A stretch of 14,006 nt of DNA from Escherichia coli (GTDB lineage Bacteria > Pseudomonadota > Gammaproteobacteria > Enterobacterales > Enterobacteriaceae). Position 1 is the stretch's first letter. The number at the start of each line of letters is the position of its first letter. Shown piece after piece: positions 290 to 9,524 of the stretch. Where the stretch lies: assembly GCF_003334255.1 (NCBI RefSeq), contig NZ_QOWU01000080.1. One strand, given 5' to 3'. A program made the position numbers and the translations under genes. Under the pieces are notes generated by a model, which was given only the letters and a program-made list of their open reading frames with translations, searched no databases and was not told the DNA's origin.

Positions 290-820
290 TCAGGCTTTCC
301 ACGTAGAATGCAGCAATTTTTCATCAGTCAGGCTCATAATCAACCCCACTTTTTTTTCTTTATACAGCAAGAAATCAGCACGTCCAGTACATCCCTCTTC
401 CGCTTCTTGCCAGGTGGCCACCTGAGTGCGGAACTCATCATCAAACACAGACTTATCAGGCCATACCACCAGAGTTTTACCACGATAACTAATCTCAAAA
501 ATAAACTGTCCCCCTAAAGAGAAAGGGGCATCAGGGTGCCTTAAAGTAGGGTTTTGCAGGCAACGTCCTTCACGTACAGCGTGAGAAAGTATCTCTACAC
601 AATCCACAATTCCCGGACCGGGAAAACCCAGACTCCAGTAAAGCTCGCGGCGCATCACCGGTTGTTGCGGAGACAACAGAGAAAAAGCGTAGCGGCTCAC
701 ACGAATCATTAGTGCAGCAGCAATAACATTAGCGTTAGTCGTATATTTTAATAAATCCTGGCGCGTCAGAGTGATATCACCATCTTGATCCCGTACGGTT
801 ACGGTTAATTCGCTCATCAA
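290..820 (-). CDS. Hypothetical protein (176 aa), last gene of the ABC operon; paralog of the 3210-3767 product
   Basis: Long ORF directly abutting the binding-protein gene. Shares the motifs SLLSPQ, RREL, FPGxGxxDCxE and GxFxFExSYRxK with the 185-aa ORF. Confidence 0.6.
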
Positions 821-1762
821 TTACTGCTCCATAGCCTGTGGTAAAACAATATTGCTAACGTCAATTTCGTTGCGAATCATTCCATTTTCAATCATAAATT
901 GGATATCTTCTTTCATGCTGGTTATATCGTCCTGATTCAGACGCTGAGTGAAGTGAGACCGATTATACAATTTCTGTGCATCCTCAACGCTAATGCCCTG
1001 TACTTTTGCGCCTAATGCTATGGCTTCCGACTGATTTTTTTCTATCCATGTACTTGCCTCATCATGGGCAGCAATGACGACTTTAATCCAGTTCGGGTGT
1101 TTTTTAACTACCTTATCACTGGATGCCATGACCAATTTAGGTACAACCAAACCACTGGCGGTCGTCAGTACTTTAGCTCCTTCCTGTTCTGCTTTAATCA
1201 CCATGGTGGCAGCCAATAGTGCGGCATCAACCTGACTACTTTGTAAAGCCGCAAATGCCTGTGGCAAATCCATTTGAACAAACTGAACATCGTTCATGCT
1301 TAAACCATTTTTCACCAAAGCAGCCACCAACGTCTGATGTAAAACCGTGCCTTTAGGCCCTGCAATCTTTTTACCTTTTAATCCGGCAATAGAATTAACA
1401 CCATTCTTAGCCCCTACAATGGCAAAAGTATCGGTAGGACGAGAAACACCAGCGATGATCATCACAGGATTACCCTCGCTATTAGACATTAAAACTGAAG
1501 AAGTATTCATTACCCCTGCAATATCAAGATCACCGCTAGCTAGCGCCTGAGCCTGTTTGGCTCCGGAAGTAATTTCGTGCCATTCCACGTTTAATCCCAG
1601 CGATTCAGCCTGCTTTTCCAACAGGTTGTGCTCCTTCATTACAATCATTTGCAGATTAAATGGTGATTTAACATAGCTGATATCCAGCGTTTTATCATCC
1701 GCATGGGCCAGTCCAGAACTCAACAATGCAGAAAACAACGTGGTCAGAAGTATCTTTTTCAT
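821..1762 (-). CDS. ABC transporter periplasmic substrate-binding protein, NMT1/THI5 (SsuA/TauA-like) family
   Basis: 313 aa with an N-terminal signal peptide (MKKILLTTLFSALLSSGLAHA) and overall NMT1/SsuA-like character; sits in an operon with ABC ATPase and permease genes. Confidence 0.8.
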   Translation of the reverse strand: MKKILLTTLFSALLSSGLAHADDKTLDISYVKSPFNLQMIVMKEHNLLEKQAESLGLNVEWHEITSGAKQAQALASGDLDIAGVMNTSSVLMSNSEGNPVMIIAGVSRPTDTFAIVGAKNGVNSIAGLKGKKIAGPKGTVLHQTLVAALVKNGLSMNDVQFVQMDLPQAFAALQSSQVDAALLAATMVIKAEQEGAKVLTTASGLVVPKLVMASSDKVVKKHPNWIKVVIAAHDEASTWIEKNQSEAIALGAKVQGISVEDAQKLYNRSHFTQRLNQDDITSMKEDIQFMIENGMIRNEIDVSNIVLPQAMEQ

Positions 1763-1786
1763 AGTTCATCCTTATTCATAAGCAGT

Positions 1787-2455
1787 TTATAAATGGGTCA
1801 GTATTCGTTGTTTTAATTCTGTGTGGGAAATATCATGATGGCGGCGGTATACCACCGCAATTCGTCCTTGACTCATAACTAAAATCTGCTGACCAATAGT
1901 TATCGCTTCATTGAGGTCATGAGTGACAAACAAACAACTAATGTTTTGATGAGTAATCAGTCGAATTAACATTTCTTGCTGTTCTGACCGCGTGATGGCA
2001 TCCAGGGCTGCAAAAGGTTCATCCATCAGTAATACTTGTGGTTTTTGCAGAAGAGCTCTTGCGATTCCTACTCGCTGCGCCATACCACCAGAAAGTTCAT
2101 GAGGCATCAGGGAATAACTTTCTCCCAGTTGAACCTGTTGTAATACTTCAGCAATTTTGGCTTGTTTAATTTTTCTGCTACATAAAAATGGCAAAGCTAA
2201 TGCCAGATTTTCAGCTACCGTTAACCATGGTAATAAACGTGGTTCCTGAAACACCATGGCACACTGTGATGCAGAGATGTTGACTGTTCCGCTATCCGGT
2301 TTAATCAAACCTGCTACAATACGCAATAAAGTGGATTTTCCTCCACCAGAAGGGCCGAGCAAGCAAATAATTTCTCCCGGCGGCAGCGAAAGTGAGACAT
2401 CGATCAATACCTGTTTTTGCTGATAGCTTTTATTAATATGAGATAATGCTATCAT
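1787..2455 (-). CDS. ABC transporter ATP-binding protein (NitT/TauT family)
   Basis: Walker A GPSGGGKST, ABC signature LSGGMAQRVGIARAL, Walker B LLMDEPFAALD, H-loop FVTHD. Confidence 0.9.
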   Translation of the reverse strand: MIALSHINKSYQQKQVLIDVSLSLPPGEIICLLGPSGGGKSTLLRIVAGLIKPDSGTVNISASQCAMVFQEPRLLPWLTVAENLALALPFLCSRKIKQAKIAEVLQQVQLGESYSLMPHELSGGMAQRVGIARALLQKPQVLLMDEPFAALDAITRSEQQEMLIRLITHQNISCLFVTHDLNEAITIGQQILVMSQGRIAVVYRRHHDISHTELKQRILTHL

Positions 2456-3213
2456 CAGGTTGTTACCTCCGGAAAACGACGACGTAATAGCAGCACCAAT
2501 GAGCGATAAAATAGCGTATCCAATAGCCAGCCAATTAAACCAATGGTTAAAATACCCACTATTACAGCATCAGTACGCATCATCTCTTGTGAATCAATAA
2601 TCAAGTATCCCAGTCCACTGCTGGCAGCGATCAATTCTGCGCCAATTAATGCTCGCCAGCTATAACCAAAAGCCAGACGAAAACCAGTAACCACAGAAGG
2701 AGTGGCGCTTGGAATTACAATCGCCAACAGATAGCGTAAAGGTGAAAGATTCAGGCTAATGGCCAATTCCTTATGGGCTGTACTGACGCGACGCAGTCCA
2801 TCACGAGTGTTAAGAAATATGGGAAACACCGAGGCCAAAACAATAATCGAGAGTTGTGTCGTCTCCCCAATACCCAACCATAAAATCAATAATGGCGTCA
2901 TGGCCAATGGGGGGATCATACGAAAGAGTGCCAAAGGCGCGGACAATAACTGTTCCAGCCATGAGTAACGAGCAACCAAACCGGCCAACATCGTTCCAAG
3001 ACAACAACTCAGACAAAACCCTTCAAACACTCGTAATAATGAAGTGGATATATGACGAGGCAATGCGCCAATTTGCCACATATTTACGGCGGAATAAAAC
3101 ACCGTTATGGGTGATGGTAGTAAATAAGCAGAGATTAACTCCAAACTTGATAACAATTGCCAGTAAATCAATAGTAATATTGGTGTCAGCAACGGTCGCC
3201 AATAGCGCATCAC
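2455..3213 (-). CDS. ABC transporter permease (NitT/TauT family)
   Basis: 252-aa hydrophobic multi-helix protein; its stop overlaps the ATPase start and its start overlaps the stop of the upstream 185-aa ORF, suggesting translational coupling. Confidence 0.85.
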   Translation of the reverse strand: MMRYWRPLLTPILLLIYWQLLSSLELISAYLLPSPITVFYSAVNMWQIGALPRHISTSLLRVFEGFCLSCCLGTMLAGLVARYSWLEQLLSAPLALFRMIPPLAMTPLLILWLGIGETTQLSIIVLASVFPIFLNTRDGLRRVSTAHKELAISLNLSPLRYLLAIVIPSATPSVVTGFRLAFGYSWRALIGAELIAASSGLGYLIIDSQEMMRTDAVIVGILTIGLIGWLLDTLFYRSLVLLLRRRFPEVTT

Positions 3214-3767
3214 AATACCTGTATTGAATCCATTGGTGAGACGGTTAACAGCGTATTAGCTAACTGATATTTAGCCACCATCCACTGTCGTTGAACTTCT
3301 GGTGTTGCATCTGGCTGCTTACTTGCACGCCCTATTTTCAAAAATTCAGTAGTTGGCTGCCCGCCTACCGGAGCTAATGATACTTTTTTACTACGATAAC
3401 TAAATTCAAAATAGAAACGTCCAGTAAGACCTTGCTGTGCTTCGGTTTGGTCAAAGTCGACATCTAATATAAAACGATTTTCCGACACCATGCGGGTTAC
3501 CAACTCAAAACAATCACGGGCCCCCCTCCCCGGAAAGGCTGTAAATAATGCTAATTCCCGACGTTGCAGGGGCTCATCCTGCGGTGATAGCAATGAAATA
3601 GCCCTTTGTAGTAACCGAAATCCCAGTACTACGCCACCAACAGCATCATACCCATGATAATTGAAGGCATCCTGAACCGAGAAAGAAAAAAGCTGATGAT
3701 TATCTGCAACGTTTAGGGATGGCATAACCCATTGGGATACAGGGATAAGACCTGGATTAGTACTCAT
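3210..3767 (-). CDS. Hypothetical protein (185 aa), first gene of the ABC operon; paralog of the 290-820 product
   Basis: ORF overlaps the permease start by 4 bp; shares conserved blocks with the 176-aa ORF (see finding). Confidence 0.6.
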   Translation of the reverse strand: MSTNPGLIPVSQWVMPSLNVADNHQLFSFSVQDAFNYHGYDAVGGVVLGFRLLQRAISLLSPQDEPLQRRELALFTAFPGRGARDCFELVTRMVSENRFILDVDFDQTEAQQGLTGRFYFEFSYRSKKVSLAPVGGQPTTEFLKIGRASKQPDATPEVQRQWMVAKYQLANTLLTVSPMDSIQVL

Positions 3768-3857
3768 GTCAACCGCCTTTCTCTTTTTATAGTAAGAGTT
3801 ATTCCCTCATGTCGATTCTAGATACAAATACAAACAACATCAATTCTCATTCCCTCT

Positions 3858-4143
3858 TCAGGTTATTTGCCTCGCTGTTTTTCTCACTGTCTCCGTTATG
3901 GTGTACACCACCTCTTCCAGTAACCGACACTTCGCCGAACTCAGGAAACCGTAGTACCTCACCATACGGAACCCCTGAGGTAGCCAGGAGGCTGCAAATC
4001 GGGGTGTGGCAGAATATGAGCTTTCAGAGTAACCATCCAGAATGAGTTCCCATGTCACACAACCTGGAGCACCAGAAAGTCCACACCAGAATGGTGAAAG
4101 AGGTTCTGAAAGCCGTCGCCAGAGCCAATAATCACCCTTATCA
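3858..4143 (-). pseudogene. Possible IS91-family (Y2 rolling-circle) transposase C-terminal remnant
   Basis: Minus-strand translation contains LPQGFRMVRYYGFLSSAKCRLL, resembling the conserved C-terminal block of IS91-family transposases as recalled (LPKGF.RIRHYGFLAN); ends abruptly at the IR at 4144. Confidence 0.3.
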
Positions 4144-4181
4144 GGGGTTCCGTGGGAATTTCTGCGATAACACCCGCTAAG
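4144..4181 (+). repeat. Tn3-family 38-bp terminal inverted repeat (left)
   Basis: GGGGTTCCGTGGGAATTTCTGCGATAACACCCGCTAAG. Confidence 0.65.
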
Positions 4182-4318
4182 CGATTCCTCCCTGACGGAA
4201 ATCACTTGTTTTCCGTCAGGTCCTGCAGTTGAAGAAAATTGAATCCATAAATCTGTGATTTTTTGCGTGACAAACCCTGTCGGAATGAGAAACTGTACGG
4301 AAACTTCAATTTTAAGGT

Positions 4319-4504
4319 TTGTCGTACATTCGCAGCCAGGGGATCATTATACCGGAAGAGCTCTTGTCCAGTGTATCACCACTACCATGGGGTCATATCT
4401 CACTCACTGGAGATTACCTGTGGAACGAAATTGACCATCCCCTTGAACGATACAGGCCACTTCGTACTAATCGCTTCAATCCAAAGAACTTCACTTTTCC
4501 TTAG
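4319..4504 (+). pseudogene. tnpA: Tn3-family transposase TnpA C-terminal remnant
   Basis: Translation ends PLPWGHISLTGDYLWNEIDHPLERYRPLRTNRF, resembling the extreme C-terminus of Tn3-family TnpA (LGWEHINLTGDYLW...RPLRP as recalled); stop codon lies inside the right IR, as in Tn3-family transposons. Confidence 0.5.
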
Positions 4505-4537
4505 CGTGTGTTATCGCAGAAATGCCCACGGAACGCC
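4500..4537 (-). repeat. Tn3-family 38-bp terminal inverted repeat (right)
   Basis: Reverse complement reads GGCGTTCCGTGGGCATTTCTGCGATAACACACGCTAAG. Confidence 0.65.
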
Positions 4538-4879
4538 GTTATGGCCGTGAATGTGCCGACGACCTGGATTAATTCTGGTATGAGTGAGTTTGACAGCCGG
4601 TTGTTTGCAGCCATTAACGATATGCTGCTGGATATGCTGGCCGCTGTTGCCAGAAGGGACTATGAACAACGGCGGGAACGCCAGAAACAGGGGATAGAGA
4701 AAGCAAGGAAAGACGGCAAATATAAAGGGCGTAAACCTAATCAAGCCAGACATGATGCAATTATCAGGTTGATAGAAAGTGGCAGCTCCTGGACACAGGT
4801 ACAGAAGGTGCTAGGGTGCAGCCGCGGCACAATCAGTAGCGCAATAAAACGTAAATCCCGGCAATCCTCCGGTGAGTAG
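4508..4879 (+). pseudogene. Serine recombinase (resolvase/invertase) C-terminal fragment; catalytic N-terminal domain absent
   Basis: Contains LLDMLAAVARRDYEQRRERQKQGIEKARKDGKYKGRKP followed by an HTH-like tail (SWTQVQKVLGCSRGTISSAIKR); convincing similarity begins around 4570-4580; no S-T-x-x-Q catalytic region upstream. Confidence 0.5.
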
Positions 4880-4994
4880 GGTAGGGTGAGCTCAATAAAC
4901 TGGCTGACGTTATTTATTAGGGAGGTGCTGAGGTGGATATTTTTAAAAAGCAAATTGAATGTTGTAACTAATGAATATCAAAATAAAAGGCCGC

Positions 4995-5174
4995 TTACGC
5001 GACCTCAGCCTTTTGCGGTTTTGGCTTGGTGATATACCACGATAGACAACCGACAATAAAACTCATGAACATTCCAGTAAAACGATCATCGATGCCTGGA
5101 AACAGGCAACCGACAAACATCGCAACAGGGAAAGGAAGAAGTAAACAGCGCCCCAAAATGCTCATAAAATCCAT
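4995..5174 (-). CDS. Small hydrophobic membrane protein (59 aa), unknown function
   Basis: ATG at 5174 is preceded by AGGAGG with a 4-nt spacer; product MDFMSILGRCLLLPFPVAMFVGCLFPGIDDRFTGMFMSFIVGCLSWYITKPKPQKAEVA. The six-frame track extends it to a GTG at 5210 inside a hairpin, which I consider unlikely. Confidence 0.4.
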   Translation of the reverse strand: MDFMSILGRCLLLPFPVAMFVGCLFPGIDDRFTGMFMSFIVGCLSWYITKPKPQKAEVA

Positions 5175-5192
5175 AAATCCTCCTTTGTTAAA

Positions 5193-5219
5193 GGGCAGGA
5201 AGCGGTGCACTTCCTGCCC
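5193..5219 (-). terminator. GC-rich hairpin, probable terminator of the toxin transcript (possibly bidirectional)
   Basis: 10-bp perfect stem GGGCAGGAAG / CTTCCTGCCC with a 7-nt loop, about 20 nt downstream of the toxin stop; followed by TTTAA on the minus strand. Confidence 0.5.
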
Positions 5220-5240
5220 TTAGTTACGTTTCCGCAGTCA

Positions 5241-5336
5241 TCAATCGATGAACTGACGGATCAGTTCCAGAACTGCAATCAGCGCGTTTGCAACGGCGAC
5301 CACAGCCCTGAGAACGATGATTAACAGGTTAATCAT
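5241..5336 (-). CDS. Candidate type I toxin: 31-aa hydrophobic peptide, DinQ/TisB-like
   Basis: Not in the ORF track (below size cutoff). Translates to MINLLIIVLRAVVAVANALIAVLELIRQFID; GGAG sits 6 nt upstream of the ATG; resembles DinQ as recalled (shared IIVL and ALIA.LELIR blocks). Confidence 0.5.
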   Translation of the reverse strand: MINLLIIVLRAVVAVANALIAVLELIRQFID

Positions 5337-5413
5337 CCGTTTCTCCAGGTTGATACTGGAGGAAGTTGCCGTTGCTTGCTCATACATCGCCTGTCACAAC
5401 GGCTCTCTCACAT

Positions 5414-5453
5414 TGTTGGATGTAGAGTACCTTCCCCCTGCCAGAGCACTGAA
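5414..5453 (+). repeat. Copy 1 of a ~40-bp repeat, within the putative toxin leader
   Basis: TGTTGGATGTAGAGTACCTTCCCCCTGCCAGAGC... is roughly 85% identical to the copy at 5658-5697. Confidence 0.6.
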
Positions 5454-5623
5454 CACAGCACCACCTGTTTGTTCAGCCAGGGCTTTAATTCGTTCATACC
5501 CAGATAGCGCAGGGTTTAGAAGCAAGGGAGGCACACTGTACAGCGCCAACACAAAGATTATACAGATGCACGCATAAAATTCATTTAAAGAAATGGCCAT
5601 TGACAGACAATCTGAAGTCAAAC

Positions 5624-5650
5624 TAGACAACTGGTGTCTAGTGCCATAAT
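5624..5650 (+). promoter_or_regulatory. Putative sigma70 promoter for the small RNA
   Basis: TAGACA (5624-5629), 15-nt spacer, extended -10 TGcCATAAT (5642-5650); alternative -10 TAATAT at 5647-5652 with a 17-nt spacer. Confidence 0.3.
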
Positions 5651-5656
5651 ATTGTG

Positions 5657-5748
5657 GATGTTGGATGTAGAGTATCTTCCTCCAGTCAGAGCCACCAACT
5701 CAGGACTGGAAAACACGAAAAAGCCCGATTACCAGTCGGGTTTTTTTG
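5657..5748 (+). ncRNA. Candidate ~90-nt small RNA (AgrB-like antitoxin), divergent from the toxin gene
   Basis: Promoter-like elements upstream and a strong intrinsic terminator at the 3' end; body contains repeat copy 2, which is imperfectly complementary to the minus-strand toxin transcript at copy 1. Confidence 0.4.
5722..5748 (+). terminator. Rho-independent terminator
   Basis: Stem GCCCGA / TCGGGT with loop TTACCAG, followed by seven T; A-tract upstream, so possibly bidirectional. Confidence 0.6.
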
Positions 5749-6149
5749 TGCCTGTCGTTCGACTGTTCTTCCGTTTTTTCCCTTCATTTGGGGGATTTTC
5801 TTTCAGTTTTTTTGTTAAGTCCAATGCTGCCGGTCGCGTTGGCCAACAGATCAATGCCGTTATCGGCGTTTCCATTAATCCTTTTTTTCAGTAAGTTGCA
5901 GCACAAAAGATGATTAAAAAGCTATCAGTTTTTTTGATGGATACAGTAGCGGCGGTACGCTGCGTGAAATCTGAGGTTTTCGGGTAGGATTGGTCGCGAG
6001 AATTTACGAGAGAGCGACGGGCGGTTTCTGCACTGAGACAAGATACAACCGTTCTTTTTTTTCCCCTTCACGCCGTAGCTGAGCGATCTCGTCTCTGTTA
6101 CGCTGAAGTTCAATGATAGTCGTAATATTTAACTCTTTACCTCTTTCGT

Positions 6150-8899: not shown

Positions 8900-8916
8900 C
8901 TCAAAGAGGAAGCACT

Positions 8917-9141
8917 ATGTTTACATGTAACTATAGCCATGCTCGCGATAACCTGGCCTCGTTGCTCGAGCTGGCGGTTGATGAAAATCAGCCAGTTGAG
9001 ATTCAGCGCCGTAAAGGTGGCGCAGCTGTACTGGTTGATAAAGACGCTTTTGAACGATACCGTAAAGCGGCTCTTGATGCTGAGTTTGCTGAGATCATGC
9101 AAAGTCATGGGACGGCCTATACGGAGCTTTCTAAGCGATGA
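8917..9141 (+). CDS. phd: Phd-family antitoxin
   Basis: 74 aa, MFTCNYSHARDNLASLLELAVDENQPVEIQRRKGGAAVLVDKDAFERYRKAALDAEFAEIM..., closely resembling P1 Phd as recalled; GAGGA 6 nt upstream; stop overlaps the doc start (ATGA). Confidence 0.85.
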   Translation: MFTCNYSHARDNLASLLELAVDENQPVEIQRRKGGAAVLVDKDAFERYRKAALDAEFAEIMQSHGTAYTELSKR

Positions 9142-9524
9142 AATTCGTTAGTTCACAGGAAGTGATTGAGTTTCATGACCGCTTGATTTCGCGTGATGGT
9201 GGCGTGGCGGGTATGCCAGAACCCGGTCGCGCTGACGCGATCATTCATCGTGTTTTGAACATGTATCATTATGAAGGTGTGACAGATATTATGGATCTGG
9301 CTGCCGTGTATTTAGTTGCTATTGCTCGTGGTCACATTTTCAACGATGCAAATAAGCGAACAGCCTTGTTTGTTGCACAGGTTTTTTTAAAACGGAATGG
9401 TGTACATATTATTAGTTCACGTATTTCGTTTGATGAAATGCAAATTATCGCTTTGAATGCTGCAACAGGAGAATATAACTGGAAGATGGTTTCTGACCAT
9501 CTTAAAGCCATTATTCTAAATTAG
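9138..9524 (+). CDS. doc: Doc toxin (Fic/Doc family)
   Basis: 128 aa with the Doc-type motif HIFNDANKRTA and GMPEPGRADAII, resembling P1 Doc; translationally coupled to phd. Confidence 0.9.
   Translation: MKFVSSQEVIEFHDRLISRDGGVAGMPEPGRADAIIHRVLNMYHYEGVTDIMDLAAVYLVAIARGHIFNDANKRTALFVAQVFLKRNGVHIISSRISFDEMQIIALNAATGEYNWKMVSDHLKAIILN

Follow-up and report, generated by a model that had tools for sequence, protein, structure and literature searches.

A small membrane protein gene fixed behind the DqlB-AgrB type I toxin-antitoxin module of IncX1 and IncX4 plasmids

The DqlB/AgrB (DinQ-like) family of type I toxin-antitoxin systems was defined by Kristiansen in 2016 (PMC5066626), and its members have been shown experimentally to act as toxin-antitoxin and addiction systems in pOXA-48 (IncL; PMC12365149) and validated experimentally in the IncX3 plasmid pOXA-484 (PMC12317039): the peptide is toxic, is neutralised by AgrB, and the system stabilises the plasmid (PMC12365149, PMC12317039). 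Each module described so far consists of a toxin mRNA plus an antisense RNA and stops at the hairpin behind the toxin gene (PMC5066626, PMC12365149, PMC12317039). The 14,006-nt stretch of Escherichia coli DNA analysed here (contig NZ_QOWU01000080.1; hereafter the window) and about 700 IncX1/IncX4-type plasmids have a third gene directly behind this hairpin, made up of a Shine-Dalgarno (SD) sequence, an open reading frame for 59 amino acids (ORF59) and a terminator. The arrangement poses two questions, namely whether ORF59 is a genuine protein-coding gene and, if it is, whether it belongs to the toxin-antitoxin module or only travels with it.

The module in the window is complete (Table 1). It has all the features by which membership of DqlB-AgrB is recognised: a DqlB peptide scoring 71.1 bits against NCBIfam NF041473 (cut-off 35, E=5e-20), an AgrB RNA scoring 68.8 bits against Rfam RF02891 (gathering score 40, E=3e-11), and complementarity between AgrB and the dqlB 5' UTR, with a duplex dG of -66.9 and z = -6.8 relative to shuffled sequences. 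These elements are shared with the described DqlB/AgrB modules, as is the 3' hairpin with its TTTAAC tail, which begins 19 nt past the dqlB stop. One database record carries a 78-aa "hypothetical protein" (WP_000887751.1; 5658-5894, plus strand) that overlaps agrB and leaves AgrB itself unannotated; the sRNA locus has probably been misread as a CDS there.

Table 1 Features of the dqlB-ORF59 locus, in coordinates of the window.
Feature	Position	Strand	Details
Motif TAGTTACAACAT, distal edge of the ORF59 cassette	4959..4970	minus	12 nt; from comparison of IncX loci
Resolvase (recombinase family) pseudogene, 5'-truncated	4538..4879	plus	convergent with ORF59
ORF59 intrinsic terminator	4977..5006	minus	8-bp stem (hairpin 5006-4987), GUAA loop, TTTTATTTT tail
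ORF59	4995..5174	minus	59 aa; ATG at 5174, TAA at 4997-4995, stop codon included
SD of ORF59, AGGAGG	5179..5184	minus	4-nt spacer ATTT, then ATG
dqlB 3' hairpin	5191..5221	minus	12-14 bp, dG -24.4 kcal/mol; homologous to the dinQ terminator stem-loop
dqlB, DinQ-like type I toxin	5241..5336	minus	31 aa; NCBIfam NF041473; RefSeq WP_000609149.1
Repeat copy in the dqlB 5' UTR, complementary to AgrB (antitoxin target)	5414..5461	minus	direct repeat D1 with 5659-5706
agrB, antisense antitoxin RNA gene	5661..5748	plus	Rfam RF02891, full-length match

ORF59 had been picked out in a sequence-only reading of the window as a 59-aa hydrophobic ORF with a consensus AGGAGG ribosome-binding site, positioned behind the toxin hairpin on the same strand and followed by a hairpin of its own. 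Every one of these elements is present. The frame, whose strand had not been stated, lies on the minus strand and translates to MDFMSILGRCLLLPFPVAMFVGCLFPGIDDRFTGMFMSFIVGCLSWYITKPKPQKAEVA, with a GRAVY of +0.77; the AGGAGG stands 4 nt ahead of the ATG, and the dqlB hairpin separates the dqlB stop from ORF59, all on the minus strand. The downstream hairpin (dG -13.2 kcal/mol) is called a minus-strand terminator by a terminator scan, and the TAA stop of ORF59 sits in its GUAA loop. The ORF59 region of the window is 100% identical to NZ_CP060062.1, a 99.8-kb E. coli plasmid that carries the 59-aa form as RefSeq WP_000347021.1 ("hypothetical protein"). Other records call the gene as 59 aa or 71 aa, and in many IncX4 records it is left unannotated. 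We rejected the 71-aa form, which would start from a GTG at 5210: this codon falls within the hairpin loop, lacks an SD and is missing from locus L019. Also rejected was an antisense 65-aa ORF (5026-5223, plus strand) that fully overlaps ORF59 and has stops in other alleles; its low dN/dS comes from wobble positions shared with ORF59. The window (14 kb) contains the AGGAGG-N3-9-ATG pattern twice, where 0.58 occurrences would be expected. The length of ORF59 is by itself not above chance, with 48 ORFs of at least 25 aa within 3 kb, and we accept the gene as real because of the comparative evidence, not because of its length.

This evidence comes from eight intact ORF59 alleles, taken from IncX1 and IncX4 plasmids and from untyped MOBP plasmids and compared by pairwise Nei-Gojobori counts in all six frames, with a binomial p for synonymous excess. 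In the ORF59 frame dN/dS is 0.11-0.42 and the synonymous excess is significant, with p down to 1.2e-6 (an example pair has 22 synonymous vs 16 non-synonymous changes over 38/139 sites, p = 1.2e-6), whereas the five other frames are interrupted by stops or give dN/dS of about 0.5-2.4. The exception is the antisense frame whose wobble positions coincide with those of ORF59, and it has a stop column in all comparisons except that of the window with L003; low dN/dS in such a frame is a known artefact. Over codons 1-25, dN/dS is 0.02-0.11 relative to L012 and L015 (0.04 for the window and L012, with 8 synonymous and 2 non-synonymous changes), and L012 pairs generally show 8-10 synonymous vs 2 non-synonymous changes in the 5' half of the gene. 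Variable alignment columns number 33, 20 and 12 at codon positions 3, 1 and 2, respectively. Exactly 59 codons are kept in alleles that have only about 55-60% nucleotide identity, and the divergent alleles L019 (53-60% nucleotide identity to the others) and L021 (55.9% protein identity to the window-type allele) keep not only this length but also the SD (AAGGAG) and the stop inside the terminator loop. At least AAGGAG is kept in all alleles, with GGAGTG in L012, L019 and L021, and the terminator hairpin is kept in seven of the eight, its stem showing G-U/G-C changes. The 22 invariant residues are MDFMSILGR, LLLP, F20, L24, DD, M35, SW, T49 and P51, and the N-terminus MDFMSILGR-LLLP is unchanged across alleles though its codons vary synonymously. 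ORF59 is thus kept across alleles under protein-level purifying selection, and this comparison of alleles gives us high confidence that ORF59 is a genuine coding gene.

What kind of protein does it encode? Hydropathy places hydrophobic segments at about residues 8-25 and 35-45, and an AF2 model, which is of low confidence (mean pLDDT 63), has helices at 3-11, 16-24 and 30-49, with an interruption at LPFP. The suggestion of a small membrane protein therefore gains two predicted helices from hydropathy and AF2 (pLDDT 63), and we have high confidence in the membrane nature of ORF59. A conserved acidic loop, DD(R/K), lies between the hydrophobic stretches and a basic tail behind the second. From this charge distribution and the positive-inside rule we infer a probable N-in/C-in helical hairpin of the inner membrane, with a predicted TM1 at ~8-25 (kinked at LPFP), a periplasmic DD(R/K) loop, TM2 at ~32-48 and a cytoplasmic basic C-terminal tail. 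A reading of ORF59 as a lipoprotein, with a lipobox-like FVG-C23, was rejected, as Cys23 is Ser in L015 and L019 and Ala in L021.

Family searches returned no relatives outside a narrow group. ORF59 matches nothing in Pfam at E<=10, including Hok/Gef and PF28061, nothing in NCBIfam at E<=1, including the DinQ/DqlB models NF041472 and NF041473, and nothing in PADLOC; its best PHROG hit has E=0.39, and a PDB sequence search gave nothing usable. A profile search over 1.84 billion representatives added only more divergent members of the same narrow family, two further hits (P0046 and P0048) being discarded as low-complexity false positives. A literature search found no paper mentioning ORF59, including PMC12365149, PMC12317039 and PMC5066626. 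As judged from these searches, ORF59 appears to belong to no described family and to be an orphan member of the bacterial small membrane proteins. Well-known examples of small inner-membrane proteins with accessory or regulatory roles are AcrZ, MgtS, MgrB and CydX, which are chromosomal, have mostly one TM helix and have known partners. ORF59 is like them in size, hydrophobicity, a strong independent SD and in being dispensable but conserved, and unlike them in being plasmid-borne, in having two predicted TM helices and in sharing no homology.

The distribution of ORF59 bears directly on the second question. By tblastn, 713 plasmids carry it, the matches falling into identity classes of 100, 98, 81, 78, 75, 66 and 60%, and its carriers have IncX1/IncX4-type backbones. 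A recognisable dqlB segment is present in about 4,827 plasmids and continues into ORF59 in only 701 of them, the dqlB-agrB module being found without ORF59 in other Inc groups; ORF59 was never seen apart from dqlB. Its start lies 66-69 nt past the dqlB stop in every locus examined, despite outer flanks that differ widely (resolvase, MipZ-like ATPase, AAA ATPase and HEPN genes, mcr-1). In IncI, IncK, IncL/M, IncF and IncX3 plasmids the homology to the dqlB segment ends at query positions 214-217, corresponding to 5187-5184 of the window, that is 0-3 nt ahead of the GGAGG core of the ORF59 SD. In this sense ORF59 is a cassette of ~210 nt that brings its SD, its reading frame and its terminator but no DNA ahead of these. 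Broken copies occur beside an intact dqlB in L005, L006 and L020, through deletions or frameshifts: L006 and L020 have frameshifts, pSARA30-type plasmids have a 20-codon in-frame deletion whose 39-aa product (P0036) is found on 67 contigs, and various truncated ORF59 proteins are present in the database.

Because the cassette brings no upstream DNA, ORF59 should be transcribed from within or through the dqlB unit, a dependence that we hold with high confidence. Read-through from the toxin promoter had been raised as a possibility, and it is made more plausible by the finding that ORF59-specific sequence starts only 0-3 nt upstream of the SD; a promoter scan found no minus-strand promoter-like site in 4700-6100. 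Transcription would begin within the dqlB unit, at the dqlB promoter or at another site, pass the U-poor dqlB 3' hairpin and stop at the ORF59 terminator; a promoter for ORF59 inside dqlB is conceivable. Read-through is the simplest route because the tail of the dqlB hairpin, only TTTAAC on the minus strand, has three U and is not called a minus-strand terminator, whereas the ORF59 hairpin, with a full U-tract, is. All dqlB loci inspected, and the chromosomal dinQ of E. coli K-12, end in the hairpin followed by TTTAAC or TTTAAT, and the GCCCTTTAAC tail is common to the IncI, IncL/M, IncX3 and IncF dqlB loci and K-12 dinQ. The dinQ hairpin has been described as a working Rho-independent terminator (PMC5066626). 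An initial reading of the weak U-tract as evidence of heavy read-through was therefore tempered, since chromosomal dinQ has the same tail and is reported to terminate there; for the same reason, read-through into ORF59 may be low. On the opposite strand, the hairpin at 5191-5221 scores as a plus-strand terminator with the tail AGTTACGTTT, and it faces a convergent gene both in E. coli K-12 (gor; L022 2262-2292) and in pOXA-48-type plasmids (trbC), which suggests that the dqlB/dinQ hairpin may act as a bidirectional terminator.

Once transcribed, ORF59 would be translated from its own strong SD, outside AgrB control, and the protein would be made in plasmid-carrying cells. We place ORF59 outside antitoxin control because AgrB lacks complementarity to it: pairing of AgrB with ORF59 regions is no better than with shuffled sequences (z = +1.1 to +1.5), on which grounds AgrB targeting of ORF59 was rejected, and no third copy of the AgrB repeat was found. 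Base pairing of the SD with codons 12-15, predicted for the common alleles, could damp translation. This pairing is given little weight because it is absent from the divergent alleles, and a conserved SD-sequestering hairpin was rejected, the structure being predicted in common alleles only and without covariation support.

The reading that we favour, at about even confidence, is that ORF59 is a genuine inner-membrane protein gene, carried as a promoterless cassette, read through from the dqlB unit and accessory to the DqlB module. The functional tie to the module, in which our confidence is moderate to low, is favoured because of the invariant physical coupling and the shared transcription. 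ORF59 is accessory in that the killing and antidote circuit works without it: published DqlB/AgrB systems function without ORF59, the pOXA-48- and IncX3-type loci that we examined lack it, and broken ORF59 alleles adjoin an intact dqlB. ORF59 could act at the membrane, for example by tuning the membrane stress caused by leaky toxin, and such a membrane-level accessory role would seem the most likely one, rather than that of a second toxin. A stronger version, in which the DqlB-AgrB system of IncX1/IncX4 plasmids (including the mcr-1 IncX4 lineage) is a three-gene module whose co-transcribed ORF59 acts at the membrane on DqlB, either as a safeguard against leaky toxin or as a co-toxin that strengthens post-segregational killing, is unlikely on present evidence. 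To our knowledge, no protein partner inside a type I (RNA-antitoxin) system has been described so far.

The main alternative, to which we give a smaller but still appreciable probability, is that ORF59 is a passenger: a membrane protein unrelated to DqlB, involved for instance in host-membrane interaction, exclusion or defence or as an accessory of a transport complex, and transcribed from an unrecognised promoter inside dqlB or by incidental read-through. Allele histories are in its favour. Codons 1-25 of ORF59 are nucleotide-identical in the window, L003, L004 and L007, as is the 3' end of dqlB, while codons 26-59 have 27-32 differences between the window and these three loci; such mosaicism points to recombination inside the gene, with a break near codon 25, and not to co-evolution with the toxin. 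Correspondingly, DqlB and ORF59 alleles do not co-vary. One DqlB sequence occurs with three different ORF59 alleles whose C-terminal halves are quite different, and there is thus no sign of DqlB-ORF59 co-evolution. The movement of dqlB-agrB between Inc groups without ORF59 fits a passenger as well, as do the loss of the terminator in L015-L017, where more same-strand genes follow, and the many disrupted alleles, which mark ORF59 as dispensable and would also suit a gene that hitch-hikes with an unrelated or marginal function. Against this stands the coupling itself. ORF59 is tied to dqlB throughout (713 plasmids by tblastn, 701 with a joint dqlB and ORF59 segment), and its SD always begins within a few nt of the module edge, with no separate promoter region.

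Could ORF59 instead be a membrane-damaging toxin, either a second type I toxin under a cis-antisense RNA, started at a promoter-like site at 5142-5170 (plus strand) and ending at the hairpin 5191-5221, or a co-toxin released together with DqlB? Like the type I toxins Hok/Gef, TisB, Ldr, Ibs, ShoB, ZorO and DinQ, ORF59 is a small hydrophobic membrane peptide (59 aa, GRAVY +0.77) of fewer than 60 aa with a charged end, and it is plasmid-borne beside a validated type I system. A plus-strand promoter-like TAAACA-17-TAAAAT faces the SD, the hairpin scores as a terminator on that strand, the SD is predicted to be sequestered in common alleles, and inactivated alleles are frequent, as for a costly gene. 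Promoter-like hits, however, are at chance (3 vs 2.0 +/- 1.3 expected) and the antisense -35 and -10 are lost in L019 and L021, for which reasons the cis-antisense RNA from 5142-5170 was rejected; the SD-sequestering pairing is not conserved; and AgrB has no complementarity to ORF59, which is not its target. ORF59 also differs from type I toxins in having two predicted TM helices instead of one and a consensus SD that is at near-optimal spacing and, in sequence terms, fully exposed, both atypical of the class, and the analysis showed neither a conserved antisense RNA for it nor a long, structured 5' UTR of its own. It has no sequence similarity to DqlB/DinQ and matches neither DinQ, Hok nor any toxin model. 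A classical second type I toxin is accordingly disfavoured, and we regard a toxin role of either kind as quite improbable.

Finally, it is very unlikely that ORF59 is untranslated and that its frame stays open only because an RNA or DNA element is conserved there, for example a recombination site or an extended 3' end of the dqlB mRNA. The points in favour are the identity of the first 75 nt among several otherwise diverged alleles, the adjoining conserved motif and resolvase gene and two weak sub-threshold Rfam hits overlapping the region. Against them stands the codon evidence: changes in the 5' half are overwhelmingly synonymous where it is variable (L012, L015, L019, L021), the synonymous excess is frame-specific (p down to 1e-6) and the length is exact at 55-60% nucleotide identity. 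Moreover, both Rfam hits score far short of the gathering thresholds.

The identity of the carriers gives the question some practical weight. Among the plasmids that carry resistance genes, those of types IncX1 and IncX4 are of major importance (mcr-1 is present at the IncX4 locus L003), and DqlB/AgrB has recently been shown to be a main stability determinant of other resistance plasmids. If it is true that ORF59 modulates the toxin, a protein component would be added to a class of systems thought to be controlled by RNA only. Even without such a role, ORF59 is a well-supported small protein that annotation pipelines call inconsistently. If it is an unrelated passenger, the finding is an ordinary one. 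What sets ORF59 apart among small membrane proteins is only that it is firmly joined to a type I toxin-antitoxin module, and this in plasmids of clinical importance. It is in any case a cheap target for knock-out or over-expression.

Several observations concern the distal edge of the cassette and the surroundings of the locus. The motif TAGTTACAACAT stands just past the ORF59 terminator in IncX1/IncX4 plasmids and almost directly behind dqlB in IncX3 plasmids without ORF59. Further copies are found at L003 2705-2716 and 2833-2844, L009 1422-1433 and L015 4818-4829; the motif lies ~80-100 nt beyond the resolvase stop, and in IncX4 it forms an inverted pair 128 nt apart. Judged from its placement, it may mark a point at which the IncX backbone undergoes recombination or takes up insertions. 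One IncX1-like lineage (L015-L017, 3181-4441) has an altered ORF59 C-terminal end and no terminator. Three extra genes lie there between ORF59 and TAGTTACAACAT: two small ones on the strand of ORF59 (100 and 139 aa), which follow it, and one on the opposite strand. The arrangement suggests that an insertion replaced the ORF59 terminator, and the transcription unit may have been extended as a result.

In the window, the truncated resolvase, ORF59, dqlB and agrB together form a piece of an IncX1-type backbone, and in IncX1 backbones the resolvase is intact as the neighbour of ORF59. A patchwork of pseudogenes on both strands at 3800-4880 (IS/transposase remnants and the truncated resolvase) separates this IncX-type segment from an ABC-transporter operon at 290-3767 (minus strand), from which we take the dqlB-ORF59 unit of the window to be what is left of an IncX1 backbone inside a larger plasmid. 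At 8916-9523 (plus strand), ~3.7 kb from the dqlB module, is a type II Phd/YefM-Doc toxin-antitoxin pair, giving two addiction systems on the segment. On the agrB side of the module, the corresponding slot of IncX1 plasmids holds variable defence-type genes (L002 6185-8352; L016 1-2111; L005 1-4915), among them HEPN RiboL-PSP, ApeA-like HEPN and a DEAD-box helicase with an AAA ATPase, and by gene content it looks like a hot spot for cargo or defence genes beside the toxin-antitoxin module.
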